In this document: positions 8,578 to 60,462 of the stretch, piece by piece
Layout: each line of letters begins with the position of its first letter
How positions within the stretch are numbered: the first letter of the stretch is position 1
Source: a virus
Taxonomy: Duplodnaviria; Heunggongvirae; Uroviricota; Caudoviricetes
Length of the DNA stretch: 64,000 bases
Virus record (IMG/VR): IMGVR_UViG_3300021963_000024
Strand: one strand, 5' to 3'
Position numbers and translations under genes: made by a program
The notes under the pieces: model-generated
Seen by the model: the letters and a program-made list of their open reading frames with translations, nothing else
Database searches by the model: none
What the model was told of the DNA's origin: nothing

Positions 8578-8613
8578 AGAATGTAATATAAGAAAAATAA
8601 ATTAAAATACCAA

Positions 8614-9741: not shown

Positions 9742-9938
9742 TATCTATTGATTGATACTAATTCAGAAGCACGCTCTACTATTTTCCTAGCATCTTCAAT
9801 TACCGTATTAATTTCTGATGGTGAAAGTTGTTGTGCACCATTTGCAACATTCTGGATAATTCTCAACTTACCATTCAACGCTTCTAATAAGTTTTGTATT
9901 TTTTCGTTATATATCATACTAATAAATATTTTATTAAA

Positions 9939-9972
9939 TAAAAAAAGGTAGAAGTTATAAAACTCCTACCTT
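9939..9972 (-). terminator. rho-independent terminator downstream of hsp20
   Basis: Hairpin aggtagaag/cttctacct-like, 9946-9971. On the minus strand it is followed by a T-run (A-run 9940-9946 on plus). Confidence 0.5.
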
Positions 9973-9996
9973 CGTAATATACAAAAAATAACTGAA

Positions 9997-10434
9997 TTAA
10001 CCAACTTTTAAGGTTAATTTTTTTGGTTTGGATTCTTCTTTTCTTTCTACTAAGATTGATAAGATACCATTTTTAATTTCCGCTTTTGCATTTCTACCAT
10101 CTAAGTCTTTACCCAATGTGATTGTTTCTTTAATGTTTCCAATCAACTGGTCAACTGCGTTTTGTGAATCTTTTTTCTCTTTTGTTGCAGTAACTTCAAT
10201 TTTATCTTCATAACAATTGATTTCAATGTTTTTAGGGTCATGTCCTATCACTGCTAAAGCAATGTGTGCTTTATCATCTTTTACATCAACTGCAAATTTA
10301 GAAGGAACAAATGTTGTTGATTTGTTTTCCCAAACTGGAGAGTTACTTTCAAAAATAGATTCTAATACTTTGTCAAAATTTGTGTAATACATAGTTTTAA
10401 TTTTTTTGTTAAACAATATACTATTATTATTCAA
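9997..10434 (-). CDS. small heat-shock protein Hsp20/alpha-crystallin
   Basis: Alpha-crystallin domain signature: ...FAVDVKDDKAHIALAVIGHDPKNIEINCYEDKIEVTATKE...AEIKNGILSILVERKEE. Confidence 0.7.
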   Translation of the reverse strand: MNNNSILFNKKIKTMYYTNFDKVLESIFESNSPVWENKSTTFVPSKFAVDVKDDKAHIALAVIGHDPKNIEINCYEDKIEVTATKEKKDSQNAVDQLIGNIKETITLGKDLDGRNAKAEIKNGILSILVERKEESKPKKLTLKVG

Positions 10435-11111: not shown

Positions 11112-11175
11112 ACTTTTAGAGTTTAATTATTTATTAATACATCTAATATATGAAAAAAATTTAAAATTACCAAAT

Positions 11176-18740: not shown

Positions 18741-18769
18741 AATATACGAATAATTTTTGAATTTACCAA
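18741..18769 (-). promoter_or_regulatory. sigma70-like promoter TTGGTA-N17-TATATT upstream of the tailoring operon
   Basis: Minus-strand read TTGGTAAATTCAAAAATTATTCGTATATT. The -10 lies about 20 nt upstream of the ATG at 18722. Member of a 4-copy family. Confidence 0.5.
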
Positions 18770-18771
18770 AA

Positions 18772-18791
18772 GGGGTGGGGGTTGGGGGAGG
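18772..18791 (+). other. G-tract (GGGGTGGGGGTTGGGGGAGG), possible G4-forming element
   Basis: Three G4-5 runs plus GG/AGG in an otherwise AT-rich intergenic region. Confidence 0.3.
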
Positions 18792-18834
18792 TCGTTTTTT
18801 AAAAGAAAATTTTTGGTATCTCTATTGATAGACC

Positions 18835-23402: not shown

Positions 23403-23723
23403 TTACTTCACGATAGAAGTGTCAGCCTTAGCTGTTGTATCTACTGCTGCTGCAGTTGAATCAACGCTAACTGCTGTAGAGTCAGCTACATTGATAGCTG
23501 CTGTGTTATTTGAACCACACGCAACCATACCCATAGTCAACACTAACGCCATTGCACCAATCTTAGCTTTGTTCACAATAGTGCTCAAACGCTTAGCATT
23601 ATACAATGCTCTTGTTGTGAAGAAATCTCTCTTTTGTTCAGATGTAGCAGTAGCTGCTTCATTTAAATTGCTTACTAACTCTGTTACCTGATACTCAACT
23701 TTTGACTTAATTGTCTTAGCCAT
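23403..23723 (-). CDS. hypothetical Ala/Thr/Val-rich protein with internal lipobox-like segment
   Basis: GC-richer codon usage than its neighbours. Contains MALVLTMGMVACGS. Confidence 0.35.
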   Translation of the reverse strand: MAKTIKSKVEYQVTELVSNLNEAATATSEQKRDFFTTRALYNAKRLSTIVNKAKIGAMALVLTMGMVACGSNNTAAINVADSTAVSVDSTAAAVDTTAKADTSIVK

Positions 23724-23814: not shown

Positions 23815-23843
23815 AATATACGAAACATTTTCGATATTGCCAA
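23815..23843 (-). promoter_or_regulatory. sigma70-like promoter TTGGCA-N17-TATATT
   Basis: Minus-strand read TTGGCAATATCGAAAATGTTTCGTATATT. Confidence 0.45.
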
Positions 23844-25696: not shown

Positions 25697-26071
25697 TTAA
25701 TAACCAGCCAATTTGTTAATGAATTTGTAAGTTAAACCAAATTCAACCAATTCACTACGCAATTCACTCATAAACTTTTTAGGGATACGACCATAAGAAA
25801 TTGGATATTCCGCAATAATATTTTTAATAGTAGCGGCTTCCTTTTTAAACATAGAAAGGAATAACTGAGCTTCAGTCATTTGTTTTCGGTTATTACATTT
25901 AATGCGGTGAACATTACCCAACAAATCGGTATATTCAACGATACACATAGTTTTTTTACCTAAACTCATTTTACTCGCGGCAAAATTCTTAAAAGGGTTT
26001 TCAATCAATTGACCCAAACGATTACCGCCGGTTTTGATACTTTCTTTAAATTCAATGTTAAACTTACTCAT
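25697..26071 (-). CDS. hypothetical protein
   Basis: 124 aa ORF preceded by a ~120-bp repeated upstream element. Confidence 0.4.
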   Translation of the reverse strand: MSKFNIEFKESIKTGGNRLGQLIENPFKNFAASKMSLGKKTMCIVEYTDLLGNVHRIKCNNRKQMTEAQLFLSMFKKEAATIKNIIAEYPISYGRIPKKFMSELRSELVEFGLTYKFINKLAGY

Positions 26072-26195
26072 ATATTACAAATTTTTTATATACCTTGTCC
26101 GATATTGGAACTTTACCCTGTAAAGATACGGCAAATTTTAGGGACCACCAAATAATTTGAAAAAAAAGTTTATTGACAATCAACGAGTTATAAAA
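26072..26195 (-). repeat. ~120-bp upstream element, copy 1 (late-promoter-like TATATAAAA plus palindrome CTTTACcctGTAAAG plus operator)
   Basis: About 85% identical to 51518-51640 by eye. Both copies sit immediately upstream of the ATG of a minus-strand gene. Confidence 0.5.
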
Positions 26196-26445
26196 CCGAT
26201 ATATTTCCGCCGGCATAACTGATTGATTGTCAATAAAGAATTTTTGAAAACATAACTCGTTGACAATCAATTAGTTACGAAATTTCTATTTAACATAATA
26301 TCAATTATTAGTTTTTTTCGGGTTTTTCTTGCGTAAAGCACTGACAATCAATTACTTCCCTATTTAACATAATATATTATATAGGACACTGGCAACTAAC
26401 TGATAATCAACAAGTTATGCAACTCATTGAAAATCAATCAATTAT
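26173..26445. promoter_or_regulatory. cluster of six palindromic operator repeats (consensus ATAACT-nn-TTGA-nnn-TCAA-nn-AGTTAT)
   Basis: Copies at 26173-26191, 26215-26233 (inverted), 26252-26278 (full 27-bp palindrome), 26341-26357, 26397-26418 and 26427-26445. Confidence 0.6.
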
Positions 26446-26478
26446 ATAAAGGTTTTGTTAGATATTATTTAAAAGAGA

Positions 26479-26710
26479 CACGGTGCGAAATAAAAATTAT
26501 CTAATGAAACGCAGACCAGGCTTATATTTGGCAATGTGGAATATTTTTCGTATCTTCAGGAAACCCGTTACAGGTCTGCGTTTCATCGCACGGACCACAA
26601 TAGCTAAATTAATTTCACTTTGCGCAACTCACCTAACTAATCGGGACTAACTCTGCGCATCCCCTTTCACCATTTTTGTATTGCCGGGAAAAACATTGCG
26701 CAGTGTGAAC
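26479..26710 (+). ncRNA. GC-rich structured non-coding island (candidate sRNA), copy 2, with embedded plus-strand promoter-like motif
   Basis: 14-bp inverted repeat ATGAAACGCAGACC (26504-26517)/GGTCTGCGTTTCAT (26573-26586) encloses TTGGCA-N17-TATCTT (26528-26556). Downstream hairpin GCGCA...TGCGC and TGCGCAGTG block. Confidence 0.3.
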
Positions 26711-26715
26711 GCAGG

Positions 26716-26880
26716 TGGGATATTTCAGTTTATAGTGATACACTTTTATAGTAATTTGTTTTCTTTGTAGTGTGTAAGTATGTAAGTAAATTATTTTGAC
26801 ACATTAAATTTTTACCACTCTTTAACACAATTTACCACTTTTACCCACAAATTAACACTACATTATTTATTTTGACACTG
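26716..26880. repeat. iteron-like short direct repeats (TTTACCAC x3, TTTTGACAC x2) in AT-rich spacer
   Basis: Visible direct repeats within the 600-bp non-coding stretch 26270-26866. Confidence 0.35.
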
Positions 26881-31541: not shown

Positions 31542-31729
31542 TTTGTTTCTTTTTTACACCTTTCAATTAACTCATCATTTTCTTTTTCATGCTTCCAATA
31601 CATTTGTCTTATTTTATTCCCCAATTCCAAATCGTTTGGCGTTTCGTTAATTACTGATGCTGATATTTTTAAATATTGTTTTGCTTCCTCAGCCCATGCT
31701 ATCATTTGTTTTGAATATTGTTTATCCAT
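31538..31729 (-). CDS. hypothetical protein
   Basis: 63 aa ORF. Confidence 0.3.
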   Translation of the reverse strand: MDKQYSKQMIAWAEEAKQYLKISASVINETPNDLELGNKIRQMYWKHEKENDELIERCKKETK

Positions 31730-32264
31730 TGTTAAATTCGTTTAATGGTAAAGGTTTTATGTCATCACCTAATATACGAAAAGTTTTTACAATTGCCAAA
31801 TCGGTTATTGTTATTTTTTCAATTTCAATTCCCCATTTTTCTACAAATTCTTTCACTTCGGCAGTTATTTGTTCATTTACATCAATCAAATCGGCCCAAG
31901 TTGTTAATTCAACAATGTCTCTAATCATTCCCATAGTAGTATCTACCAATACATCATTTGCGTGCATCACATTCAAAAGATAATTTTTTACATTCACCAC
32001 CCTATATCTAATCAAAGCTTTCAATACAATTCCCTGCTCGTCTAATGTAGTTAGTGTTTGCGCCGGCAAATTTACAGTTTGTGTAATTACCGCTGTTTCA
32101 ATAATCGAATCAAAGAATGGTATTTTAATCCAAATACCTGCCTTCAATGTTCTATGATATTTACCCAATCTTAAATGTATAGCTTCATTCCATTGTTCAA
32201 CTATAATGAAAGGTAAAATATCATTCCAAAATCTAGTTATTATTTCAATTAGTTTATCAAACAT
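31722..32264 (-). CDS. hypothetical protein
   Basis: 180 aa ORF. Confidence 0.4.
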   Translation of the reverse strand: MFDKLIEIITRFWNDILPFIIVEQWNEAIHLRLGKYHRTLKAGIWIKIPFFDSIIETAVITQTVNLPAQTLTTLDEQGIVLKALIRYRVVNVKNYLLNVMHANDVLVDTTMGMIRDIVELTTWADLIDVNEQITAEVKEFVEKWGIEIEKITITDLAIVKTFRILGDDIKPLPLNEFNNG

Positions 32265-32749: not shown

Positions 32750-33289
32750 TTACCATTTTATTGATTGTGAAACAGGCATATTAAAGTTTGTGTTTCCTGA
32801 TATTGTTTTTGCTTTTCTTTTACTTCTAATTTCATCTTGCATCATACCGAGCAAAGAACAATATGTTTTAATAACTTGATTTTTGTTAATCGAATCACAA
32901 GCGATATGAATAAAGTTTTGTAAAGATTTTATTTCGTTTGGTCTTATTATTCTTCTAATTTTTGAACTTAAAATATTCTTTGTATCTTCTATTTCCAAAT
33001 TAAATTCACCAACCATTTTAGTTAGTTTGACACGAAATACAATATCGTTATCAGCGGTTTCGATTATTTCAGTGAAGTAGGCCTGACTATTTTCATAAAC
33101 TCTACCAAAACAAAACGATGCACCCATCAATTCAAATCGTTCACCTTGTATTTTTTTCCAATTTATTATTTGCATTTGTTCTGCTTTCTGTTCTGCTGCC
33201 AATGCACAACTCAAATGATTATATCCTACAAGGTATTCAATATCGACATGATAAGTATCTTGTCCACAATATGCGCATATTTTTTTCAT
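32750..33289 (-). CDS. hypothetical protein with N-terminal zinc-finger-like CxxC
   Basis: MKKICAYCGQDTYH...SCALAA. Confidence 0.4.
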   Translation of the reverse strand: MKKICAYCGQDTYHVDIEYLVGYNHLSCALAAEQKAEQMQIINWKKIQGERFELMGASFCFGRVYENSQAYFTEIIETADNDIVFRVKLTKMVGEFNLEIEDTKNILSSKIRRIIRPNEIKSLQNFIHIACDSINKNQVIKTYCSLLGMMQDEIRSKRKAKTISGNTNFNMPVSQSIKW

Positions 33290-33324
33290 TCATTAAATAT
33301 ACAAAAAATATTCGATATTACAAA

Positions 33325-40613: not shown

Positions 40614-40878
40614 TTTCTCTTAGTGTTTGTTTAAAGTTTTCATCTTCCTCTTGTGGTGTTGGTAAATATGCTGATTTGTAATATTCATCATCATATTCCA
40701 TTCCATCAGGAAAGATTGAGCCACTATTGACTCCATTCCAATATTCCTCATTTAATTTTTCTTCTTTCAGATATTGTTCATAGATGTAATCTTCATCATG
40801 TTGAATATCATTTGGTAAGTTATTTTGTTGTTGCATATACCATTCTTTTGTTTTACTCATAACTATTCGTTTTGTCAA
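40597..40878 (-). CDS. hypothetical acidic protein
   Basis: 93 aa ORF. Confidence 0.35.
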   Translation of the reverse strand: MTKRIVMSKTKEWYMQQQNNLPNDIQHDEDYIYEQYLKEEKLNEEYWNGVNSGSIFPDGMEYDDEYYKSAYLPTPQEEDENFKQTLRENGYTS

Positions 40879-40896
40879 ATATACACAAAATATTCC

Positions 40897-41436
40897 TTAT
40901 TTCAAAATAATTTTTTCTACTTTCACTACACCATTTGAACGAGCAACTATTGTCATTGTATCACCTCTCATATTCCACATTGGTGCTATGACTGTATTGA
41001 TACTACCATCTGCGGAATTGTATGTTGCCGAATTGATTGTTGGTACCTGTGATTGTTTTAAGTTTACTACTTTGATACTATCTACAATTTGCCAACCTAA
41101 TCCTCTCCATGTCCTACGATAGATTGTTCCGATTGTATCACCAACTTTCAGTGTCCAATAATGTGAACTTTCCCATTCAACTTTCTCACGAGGTTCATTT
41201 GGTATTCGTCCGTTCACTCTAATAGATCCAGATATTGTATGTATGTTTTGTGTTTGTGTTGAATACAAATTGAATACTGAATATCCGTTTACATCCTTTG
41301 GTAATCGAGTATCAATATTCAATTCAATATTTTTACTAAATACATCTTTACTACAAGCTGAAAAGAATGTCATTATTATCAATCCCAATAAGTATAACAT
41401 CATTAAGATTGATTTTTCTGATATTTGTTTTTTCAT
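40897..41436 (-). CDS. lipoprotein
   Basis: Signal peptide with lipobox (LIIMTFFSAC). Confidence 0.45.
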   Translation of the reverse strand: MKKQISEKSILMMLYLLGLIIMTFFSACSKDVFSKNIELNIDTRLPKDVNGYSVFNLYSTQTQNIHTISGSIRVNGRIPNEPREKVEWESSHYWTLKVGDTIGTIYRRTWRGLGWQIVDSIKVVNLKQSQVPTINSATYNSADGSINTVIAPMWNMRGDTMTIVARSNGVVKVEKIILK

Positions 41437-51517: not shown

Positions 51518-51640
51518 ATTAATAAAATTTTATATATATCTCCAATATTGGAAACTTTACCCTGTAAAGATACGAAATTTTCCCGAACTGGCCAAATAAT
51601 TTGAAAAAATTGTTCATTGACAATCAACGAGTTATGAAAT
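51518..51640 (-). repeat. ~120-bp upstream element, copy 2
   Basis: Shares caatattggaaactttaccctgtaaagatacg...ccaaataatttgaaaaaa...ttgacaatcaacgagttat with 26072-26195. Confidence 0.5.
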
Positions 51641-51742
51641 ACCCTATAAAACCAAAAGCATAAGTCATTGATTGTCAATAAAGAATTTTCTCATTGATAA
51701 TCAACGACTTATGCGTAACCCATTGAGGGTCAATTAGTTATG
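51617..51742. promoter_or_regulatory. cluster of four palindromic operator repeats
   Basis: 51617-51635, 51668-51678 (inverted), 51694-51712 and 51730-51742. Confidence 0.55.
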
Positions 51743-54040: not shown

Positions 54041-54087
54041 TGAAGATAGTAGGGGAATCGAACCCCTACCAAGTTCCAAACTATCTT
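54041..54087 (-). other. tRNA-like element: acceptor stem + T-arm with 12-nt insert replacing the D/anticodon arms
   Basis: Minus-strand read AGATAGT-TT-GGAACTTGGT-AGGGG-TTCGATT-CCCCT-ACTATCT-T(CA). It has a perfect 7-bp acceptor and 5-bp T-stem with a canonical T-loop. Confidence 0.45.
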
Positions 54088-57895: not shown

Positions 57896-57917
57896 TTAAT
57901 TGGTGATTGATTTATCA

Positions 57918-57946
57918 AATATACGAAAAATTTCCCGTTTCACCAA
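57918..57946 (-). promoter_or_regulatory. sigma70-like promoter TTGGTG-N17-TATATT upstream of the AAA+ gene
   Basis: Minus-strand read TTGGTGAAACGGGAAATTTTTCGTATATT. Confidence 0.5.
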
Positions 57947-57962
57947 ATTTATTTTTAATTAA

Positions 57963-58031
57963 TTGATTATCAATGATTTATGTAATAAAAAAAGGGGTAA
58001 TATATACCCCTTTGATTATCAATGAGTTATG
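57963..58031. promoter_or_regulatory. operator-hairpin-operator cassette
   Basis: Operators at 57963-57982 and 58012-58031 flank the terminator hairpin AAAGGGGTA-atata-TACCCCTTT (57991-58013). Confidence 0.55.
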
Positions 58032-60310: not shown

Positions 60311-60338
60311 AGTAATAAATTTTTGTGTGATTTCATTA

Positions 60339-60367
60339 AATATACGAAAAATTTTTGAATTTACCAA
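60339..60367 (-). promoter_or_regulatory. sigma70-like promoter TTGGTA-N17-TATATT upstream of the VWA gene
   Basis: Minus-strand read TTGGTAAATTCAAAAATTTTTCGTATATT. Confidence 0.5.
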
Positions 60368-60394: not shown

Positions 60395-60462
60395 TTGAAA
60401 ATCAATCAGTTATGCAATAAAAAAAGGCTTAATATATAAGCCTTTGATTATCAATTAGTTAT
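60395..60462. promoter_or_regulatory. operator-hairpin-operator cassette
   Basis: Operators at 60395-60414 and 60444-60462 flank the hairpin AAGGCTTA-atatat-TAAGCCTT (60424-60444). Confidence 0.55.

Follow-up and report, generated by a model that had tools for sequence, protein, structure and literature searches.

A family of closely similar promoter sequences was found in a 64,000-nucleotide (nt) stretch of DNA, hereafter the window, of the uncultured phage IMGVR_UViG_3300021963_000024 (Caudoviricetes) in the IMG/VR database. With good confidence, I read them as promoters of a freshwater jumbo phage that are recognized by the RNA polymerase of the host together with its primary sigma factor, and the host as a member of the Bacteroidota. 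An initial annotation of the sequence had pointed out four minus-strand copies of TTGG(T/C)(A/G)-N17-TATATT and a weak fifth copy on the plus strand. The family is real, and the promoter reading was right in kind; the sites are best described as host-type promoters of a known kind, in the style of a -33 and a -7 element. However, the family is larger than was thought. It has about 13 members in 64 kb: ten clear and two weaker copies on the gene strand and one antisense copy (Table 1).

The pattern was confirmed at all four minus-strand sites (18741, 23815, 57918, and 60339), as was TTGGCA-N17-TATCTT at 26528-26556 on the plus strand. The gaps between the four sites and the next start codon are 18, 91, 22, and 28 nt, respectively, within the 15-110 nt originally given. 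In agreement with sigma70-type promoters, the sites are bipartite with a 17-bp spacer, are oriented with the genes, and lie in intergenic regions or gene 3′ ends just before start codons. Six clear copies, at 31771, 11145, 8585, 9976, 51567, and 26123, had been overlooked. Counted over the whole window, the exact motif TTGGYR-N17-TATATT occurs eight times, about 40-fold above the expected 0.20, and none of 100 dinucleotide shuffles reached eight. With a weight matrix derived from the clear copies, ten matches were obtained on the minus strand and one on the plus strand, while shuffled sequences reach its cutoff zero to one times. The looser pattern TTG-N20-TAT[AC]TT gave ten matches on the gene strand versus 4.3 expected, and all ten read TTGG and lie 7-91 nt before an ATG. 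Its four plus-strand matches are at chance level, and only the one at 26528 has the features of the family. Since the matrix has a fixed spacing, it overlooks variants with a 16-bp spacer, such as that of Flavobacterium phage filifjonk. The TATCTT variants at 51567 and 26123 and the weaker copies at 33296 and 40878 were found by direct reading of the intergenic regions.

Table 1. Promoter copies, terminators, and the palindrome array in the window. The genes named are those that the promoters are predicted to drive.
Feature	Sequence	Position	Strand	Remarks
Promoter	TTGGTAAATTCAAAAATTTTTCGTATATT(ta)	60339-60367	-	VWA-type gene, ATG 60310; predicted start near 60332
Promoter	TTGGTGAAACGGGAAATTTTTCGTATATT(tg)	57918-57946	-	Full TATATTTG -7 box; AAA+ (CbbQ/MoxR-like) gene, ATG 57895; predicted start near 57911
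Promoter, TATCTT variant	TTGGCCAGTTCGGGAAAATTTCGTATCTT	51567-51595	-	GP88-family gene, ATG 51517
Weak member, membership uncertain	TTTGAAATAAGGAATATTTTGTGTATATT(tg)	40878-40906	-	Before ATG 40860; TTTG one base nearer to the -10 element; matrix score 11.5
Weaker member	TTTGTAATATCGAATATTTTTTGTATATT	33296-33324	-	Directly after hairpin and T-run; TTTG shifted by one base; matrix score 26.6
Promoter	TTGGCAATTGTAAAAACTTTTCGTATATT	31771-31799	-	Inside the 3′ end of ORF 31722-32264; small ORF, ATG 31729
Promoter, TATCTT variant	TTGGTGGTCCCTAAAATTTGCCGTATCTT	26123-26151	-	124-amino acid protein gene, ATG 26071; divergent from the 26528 copy
Antisense promoter	TTGGCAATGTGGAATATTTTTCGTATCTT	26528-26556	+	TTGGCA-N17-TATCTT; sole copy opposing the gene direction
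Promoter	TTGGCAATATCGAAAATGTTTCGTATATT	23815-23843	-	91 nt ahead of ORF 23403-23723
Promoter	TTGGTAAATTCAAAAATTATTCGTATATT(tg)	18741-18769	-	Operon led by 2-oxoglutarate (2OG)-Fe(II) oxygenase gene, ATG 18722; poly-C tract directly upstream
Promoter	TTGGTAATTTTAAATTTTTTTCATATATT	11145-11173	-	Gene at ATG 11111
Weaker member	TTGGTTAATTCAGTTATTTTTTGTATATT	9976-10004	-	Matrix score 23.6; hairpin, then T-run downstream
Promoter	TTGGTATTTTAATTTATTTTTCTTATATT	8585-8613	-	UvdE endonuclease gene, ATG 8577, 7 nt after the -10 element
Intrinsic terminator	AAAGGGGTATATATTACCCCTTT + T-run	57991-58013	-	About 45 nt upstream of the promoter at 57946
Intrinsic terminator	AAAGGCTTATATATTAAGCCTTT + T-run	60423-60445	-	Upstream of the promoter at 60367
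Six-copy array of a 24-nt palindrome	AACTnnTTGAYAATCAAnnAGTTA	26167-26444		Between the promoters at 26151 (-) and 26528 (+)

When the first T of TATATT is numbered -12, the extended motif can be written as aaTTTGGyAA-(A/T-rich)-TTTTCG-TATATT(tg). Conserved across the family are TTTGG, a centre rich in A, a stretch made up of A and T alone, and (T/C)G abutting TATATT. TTTG occupies -36 to -33, the place of the '-33' element of Bacteroidota, and is mostly extended to TTTGG(T/C)AA. It is preceded by an A-rich, UP-like stretch at -41 to -37 and followed by A-rich positions around -24 to -22, the A/T-only block at -21 to -17, (T/C)G at -14/-13, and TATATT at -12 to -7. The arrangement is TTTG-N20-TA in the clear copies and has N19 in the two weak copies, within the 19-21 bp expected between the -33 element and the -7 box of a Bacteroidota promoter. 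In about half of the sites TG follows TATATT and completes the -7 box TAnnTTTG; the full TATATTTG is present at only 3 of the 13 window sites. Compared with the canonical sigma70 consensus, TTGGTA agrees with TTGACA at four of six positions and TATATT with TATAAT at five of six (nine of the 12 hexamer positions altogether), and all clear copies have a 17-bp spacer. In contrast to extended -10 promoters, the sites lack TGn (TG at -15/-14), the conserved (T/C)G at -14/-13 adjoining TATATT instead. The T before TTG and the frequent TG after the hexamer are Bacteroidota features.

Is this layout confined to the window? A search of IMG/VR with TTTGGYRA-N12-TTCGTATATT matched at least 119 contigs, and all of the matches listed are in DNA of about 30% G+C. 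An open reading frame (ORF) of at least 50 amino acids starts on the same strand within 150 nt downstream in 100 of 106 distinct sites, with a median gap of 23 nt. In 112 IMG/VR sites, TA..TT is invariant, G is absent at -10/-9, T-6 is found in 58%, and G-5 in 51%. At positions that the query left unconstrained, the A-rich stretches at -41 to -37 and -24 to -22 and the A/T-only block at -21 to -17 are seen again; T then C is seen at -26/-25, and T almost never occurs at -25.

Transcription would start about 7 nt past the hexamer, mostly at a purine. For a primary-sigma promoter of Bacteroidota, a start 4-5 nt past the -7 box would be expected. Since the median gap from the -10 element to the ATG is 23 nt, the leaders are predicted to be short (about 16 nt). 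In the window, this gap ranges from 6 to 91 nt on the gene strand. The ATG of a 179-amino acid protein lies only 6 nt past the -10 element of the copy at 33296 (region 33289-33324). Thus, the mRNAs of this gene and of the UvdE gene (8585; 7 nt) would be leaderless. The promoter and ATG of UvdE are arranged in the same way in IMG/VR loci L022 and L030; at about 10% of the IMG/VR sites, the gap does not exceed 7 nt. A Shine-Dalgarno-like 4-mer precedes only 5 of the 119 window genes, fewer than the random rate of 10%, and the leaders are rich in A (77% at -11/-12 and 61% at -3).

These properties were compared with the Bacteroidetes primary-sigma consensus (sigma-ABfr type), which consists of a -33 TTTG and a -7 TAnnTTTG, refined to TAHHTTTG in Flavobacterium johnsoniae (Baez et al. 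2019, PMC6847099). In the same study, AT-rich motifs were centred near -18 and -28, the positions T-12, A-11, T-8, T-7, T-6, and G-5 of the -7 box were near-invariant, and translation starts of Bacteroidetes were described as lacking a Shine-Dalgarno sequence and being A-rich at -11 to -14, -6, and -3 (PMC6847099). The phage sites resemble this primary-sigma layout in several ways: 20 bp separate TTTG from TA, TAHHTT does not vary, AT-rich blocks are placed roughly one and two turns of the helix above the -7 box, and the short, A-rich leaders lack Shine-Dalgarno sequences. They differ from F. johnsoniae in that TG completes the -7 box in only about half of the sites, while the -33 element, 'much less evident' in F. 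johnsoniae, is far stronger.

The conservation of the sites among relatives of the phage was examined next to the AAA+ gene (downstream of 57918) and the VWA-type gene (60339). The promoter is kept before both orthologues in relatives of 55-87% identity, and the spacer drifts. In the 24 loci with an AAA+ orthologue, the motif is found in the gene direction only, with no match on the reverse strand; the site of the VWA orthologue lies 2400-2700 nt before the AAA+ match. With relaxed matching, 19 of about 23 orthologous loci have TTGnnn-N17-TAT(A/C)TT in the equivalent position ahead of the AAA+ gene. Their spacers differ freely, and their -35 hexamers read TTGGCA, TTGGTA, TTGTGC, TTGACT, or TTGACA. 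This pattern is the footprint expected for a promoter of a sigma70-family holoenzyme. The site orthologous to 23815 also scores 30-39 in relatives L323, L325, L326, L327, and L330. Relatives share the local gene order around the AAA+ and VWA genes and in the 23-26 kb region.

The spacer had been called near-identical among the copies. This holds for 60339 and 18741, which differ by one base, but not across the rest of the family. The conserved part appears largely to coincide with the AT-rich blocks of Bacteroidota promoters near -18 and -28, and in a subset of sites with the U-tract of a terminator. The further suggestion that the conserved spacer points to, for example, a phage factor was not borne out, since the same extended motif occurs in unrelated Bacteroidota phages and before chromosomal genes. 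When isolated phages were searched with a 46-nt consensus, the long matches were mostly in phages of Bacteroidota hosts: Elizabethkingia phage TCUEAP1, 21 Flavobacterium phages, Cellulophaga phages, crAss-like phages (such as cr108_1), and Prevotella Lak phages. Among these matches are also huge phages (634-642 kb; one is the 642-kb LR756502), which have 17-18 consensus matches each. Intergenic, gene-oriented sites were confirmed on inspection, for example TTTGGTAGTATCAAAATTAGTCGTATATTTG in Flavobacterium phage filifjonk9-1, TTTGGTAGATTAAAAAAGTTGCCGTACATTTG in the Elizabethkingia phage, and six TTTG-N19/21-TAHHTTTG sites in 40 kb of LR756502.

The pattern used for IMG/VR was also searched in 185,579 species genomes, with the phylum taken from the record names. 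At least 120 stretches matched; among the 120 listed, 63 belong to Bacteroidota and 11 represent one conserved locus of Latescibacterota. Among these listed matches, TG follows the hexamer in 51% of those in Bacteroidota versus 9% of those in other phyla, and the all-A/T block is present in 52% versus 7%. The chromosomal matches of Bacteroidota precede ruvB, carA, and fhs (formate-tetrahydrofolate ligase)-like genes as well as regulators. At independent TAHHTTTG sites in the same loci, TTTG is enriched 19-20 bp away, with a mode of 20 bp. Because the extended motif fits the primary-sigma layout of Bacteroidota and occurs in unrelated phages and chromosomes, a phage-specific recognition factor seems unnecessary. 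Most likely, the promoters are recognized directly by the polymerase of the host carrying the primary sigma factor, and the host most likely belongs to the Bacteroidota. Since an unmodified host enzyme would suffice, the timing of these promoters is probably early or constitutive.

Several points weigh against this explanation. In 24 independent chromosomal promoters, TTTGG is present in about 40% and G-13 in about 33%, whereas both are near-invariant in the phages; likewise, the dinucleotide (T/C)G at -14/-13 as a whole hardly varies in the phages, unlike in the chromosomes. As TTTGG and G-13 are tighter than in chromosomal promoters, the phage family is narrower than the host consensus. T-6 and G-5, near-invariant in F. 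johnsoniae, are found in only about 55% of the IMG/VR sites. The genome exceeds 200 kb and the window covers 64 kb of it, so a phage sigma gene may be encoded elsewhere. As for the host, the isolate with the nearest AAA+ protein is annotated as a Microcystis phage, though it also has Bacteroidota-type promoters, and the bin of a Cyanobium metagenome-assembled genome (MAG) includes one related contig. Finally, polymerase binding, start sites, strength, and timing are what I infer from the sequences.

The differences from the host consensus might reflect a separate module. It is conceivable, though unlikely, that G-32, AA at -30/-29, the non-T at -25, the T-run, and (T/C)G at -14/-13 form a phage 'super-consensus' shared across unrelated Bacteroidota phages. 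Such a module may provide an extended -7 or extended -33 contact for the unusual Bacteroidota sigma factor, by which phages outcompete host promoters, may be a horizontally spreading terminator-promoter cassette, or may be the site of an accessory factor. I see only a small chance that an unrecognized extra contact or an accessory factor lies behind the differences.

A phage-encoded factor, either a phage protein of the sigma70 family or an activator binding TTTGG(T/C)AA or the partly palindromic TTTG-N7-CAAA, is quite improbable as well. The tightness of TTTGG and G-13 and the loose T-6/G-5 would suit such a factor, as would the near absence of T at -25 and the CAAA complementary to TTTG at about half of the sites, and the window represents only a quarter of the genome. 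On the other hand, the motif is shared by 38-kb siphoviruses, crAss-like, Lak, and 640-kb phages and by the upstream regions of Bacteroidota housekeeping genes, and relatives carry TTGACA or TTGACT in place of TTGG at the same site. No domain of a sigma factor or RNA polymerase was found by Pfam among the 99 window proteins of at least 70 amino acids, and no such gene is annotated in a 38-kb Flavobacterium siphovirus that carries the motif. Judged from the window, the sites are unlike promoters of phage polymerases or phage sigma factors: no such gene was found there, and the motif is of the host type and present on bacterial chromosomes.

Some of the copies are fused to terminators. Two units of about 125 nt, at 57.9-58.04 kb and at 60.34-60.46 kb, resemble each other. 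In both of them, a palindromic element, a terminator hairpin with its T-run, a second palindromic element, an A-rich stretch, and the promoter follow each other. The terminator-promoter arrangement is seen at 57.9, 60.4, and 33.3 kb and is missing at most other copies. Among IMG/VR sites, 28 of 117 have a stable hairpin (free energy, dG, of -8 kcal/mol or below) whose end directly precedes the T-run, versus about 7.6 in shuffled sequences (maximum 14). In the clearest overlapping cases, the -35 element lies inside the hairpin, and the T-run of the spacer is the U-tract of the terminator. Such compact cassettes would make single genes or small operons separate transcription units.

Similar cassettes of a terminator and a promoter are known from T4-like phages as promoter-early stem-loops (PeSLs) (PMC2839356, PMC4122927). 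Could the uniformity of the family result from copying and homologous exchange of a mobile or recombinogenic cassette of this type, whose T-rich spacer is a terminator U-tract? The two similar units and the excess of hairpins before T-runs are in line with this idea. However, no hairpin adjoins the copies at 18741, 23815, 31771, 11145, and 8585, and local synteny is conserved without any cassette-bounded insertion or deletion seen in the AAA+/VWA and 23-26 kb regions of relatives. As an explanation of the family, it is very unlikely; besides, it would complement the promoter function and not replace it. The likeness to T4 early promoters and PeSLs is that many near-identical host-type promoters precede small or accessory genes of a large phage and that a terminator hairpin is joined to several of them. 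The two systems differ in host phylum and consensus, and some cassettes here add a 24-nt palindromic, operator-like element. Lastly, functionless chance strings in an AT-rich genome, suggested by a generic consensus scan of 14 kb that gave 87 strings versus 80 in shuffled sequence, are refuted and have virtually no chance of explaining a family that is 40-fold above expectation, strand-specific, close to start codons, and conserved at orthologous positions.

The preferred explanation, promoters read by the host polymerase of a Bacteroidota bacterium, has a precedent. The P_BfP1E6 family of Bacteroides phage promoters is said to go back to Whitaker et al. 2017 (Cell). Promoters of this type serve as expression tools, have UP elements and a -7 box, and are read by the host polymerase; they are constitutive and stronger than native rRNA or rpoD promoters (bioRxiv 10.1101/2025.03.18.644028). 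They are phage-borne like the present family, but come from a gut Bacteroides phage and not from freshwater jumbo phages, and the likeness is one of description only.

The window itself has 119 predicted genes, all on the minus strand, with a coding share of 91% and a G+C content of about 30%. The annotated products are accessory or metabolic: 2OG-Fe(II) oxygenases, a carbamoyltransferase, a radical SAM protein, UvdE, a DNA ligase, a peptide deformylase, and Hsp20. An AAA+ CbbQ/MoxR-like ATPase, NlpC/P60, Band-7, and GP88 proteins were also recognized. The larger window proteins mostly remained without annotation by PHROGs and Pfam, and the large gene that the initial annotation called VWA had no Pfam match. 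Scans of the whole window for tRNAs and Rfam families gave no call, and a megablast search with the 50-64 kb part found no DNA-level match among isolated phages. Orthologues of the AAA+ protein with 74-87% identity are encoded on IMG/VR contigs of 176-251 kb; thus, the lineage is one of jumbo phages. The closest AAA+ relative in an isolated phage (57% identity) is that of Microcystis phage Mel-JY01 (L334, PP395634.1 127397-140260).

Homology gave little information about the host. One homologue of a window protein, the carbamoyltransferase, is on a contig binned as Bacteroidota, and the homologues of this protein include thousands of metagenomic matches without taxonomy. The matches of the DNA ligase, to alphaproteobacterial and huge phages, were of no help. 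For freshwater jumbo phages with a G+C content of 31-34%, Bacteroidetes hosts have already been predicted (PMC9723584).

What does the family mean? Phages with many near-consensus host promoters are textbook knowledge, and the understanding of phage transcription is unchanged by this one. Rather, the promoter layout and the translation signals would assign a lake-abundant, uncultured lineage of more than 200 kb to a Bacteroidota host without an isolate or a match to clustered regularly interspaced short palindromic repeats (CRISPR). Together with the terminators, the promoters putatively delimit the transcription units of 64 kb in which most genes have no annotation. For genetic work in Flavobacterium and Bacteroides, the tight consensus offers candidate promoters that are probably strong, and G-13 and TTTGG raise the hypothesis of extra sigma contacts. 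A possible host mis-assignment of the phage annotated as a Microcystis phage is also indicated. The DNA of Mel-JY01 has 36% G+C and TTG-N19/20-(C/T)GTATATTTG promoters, and its gene starts lack Shine-Dalgarno sequences. Such Bacteroidota-type expression signals put a question over its true host.

The plus-strand copy at 26528-26556 is more than the weak fifth member that it was taken for. It is a conserved antisense promoter, present in six of nine relatives, always reversed relative to the genes and always with TATCTT. The two arms of a perfect 14-nt inverted repeat (26504-26517 and 26573-26586) lie on either side of it. No ORF of at least 30 amino acids was found downstream of it. The idea that it drives a structured noncoding RNA was rejected, as RNAalifold with five relatives gave -3.15 kcal/mol and no covariation.

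The palindromes of the array next to this promoter have the long form CATAAGTCATTGATAATCAATGACTTATG. Further copies were found at 51617-51704, 57963-57973, 58012-58022, 60395-60405, and 60444-60454. Thus, the palindromes are clustered upstream of four promoters and flank two terminators, and they are present in close relatives. They look like an operator array for a dimeric DNA-binding protein. The 124-amino acid protein encoded beside the array (25697-26071) has a faint helix-turn-helix match (E = 0.06). The palindrome TTGATAATCAA was considered as a general part of the promoters and was rejected, because it lies beside only 6 of 112 IMG/VR promoter sites; it is therefore an accessory specific to this lineage.

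The array and the divergent TATCTT promoters lie in a gene-free region of 795 nt (26072-26866). The region also holds three ACTyTGCGCA repeats (26617-26702) and a GGTGGGATATTT box, which are kept in relatives. The repeats TTTACCAC, TTAACAC, and TTGACAC (26791-26878) are phased by about 10 nt and are also conserved in relatives. Judging from these elements, the region could be a regulatory switch, an origin of replication with iterons, or both, or could give rise to a noncoding transcript.

The TATCTT copies at 51567 and 26123 also share a similar transcribed leader, tacagggtaaagtt(t)ccaatat..gga..atatataaaa (51518-51595 and 26072-26151). They appear to be paralogous regulatory cassettes placed before unrelated genes, those of the GP88-family protein and the 124-amino acid protein.

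A poly-C tract, CCTCCCCCAACCCCCACCCC (18770-18796 on the minus strand), abuts the -35 element of the promoter at 18769. A near-identical poly-C tract with the promoter is present on a 2.8-kb contig (L232; see also L029) that was binned into a Cyanobium MAG. At 9918-10004 on the minus strand, a promoter-like site is immediately followed by a hairpin and T-run, aaggtaggagttttataacttctaccttttttt. Since the predicted start of the 9976 copy lies inside the 5′ arm of the hairpin, its transcripts might escape a terminator that halts upstream transcripts.

In Latescibacterota (L143, L144, L176, L179, L188, L192, L195, L213, and L218), the G+C-rich locus TTTGGTAAG(A/C)(C/T)CGCGCGATTTTCGTATATTCAGCC fits the pattern. 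Here, the match is probably to a promoter conserved ahead of a single gene; the phylum is a sister of the Fibrobacterota-Chlorobiota-Bacteroidota (FCB) group. Matches at contig ends of Chryseobacterium sp. Leaf404 were considered as ribosomal RNA promoters, which was rejected because no ribosomal RNA lies downstream. In this strain (L199 7100-8000; ends of L148, L152, and L173), the motif edges a repeated, assembly-breaking element, and the downstream ORF is a candidate transposase. Thus, the motif may be an insertion-sequence promoter there.

An intergenic hairpin was noticed at 54043-54087 on the minus strand (dG of -17.4 kcal/mol, z = -3.0). It was not called by ARAGORN or Rfam. It has a tRNA T-arm-like sequence, GGTAGGGGTTCGATTCCCCTACT, and its flanks, AGATAGT and ACTATCT, are complementary to each other. 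The hairpin may represent a tRNA-like minihelix or what remains of a tRNA.

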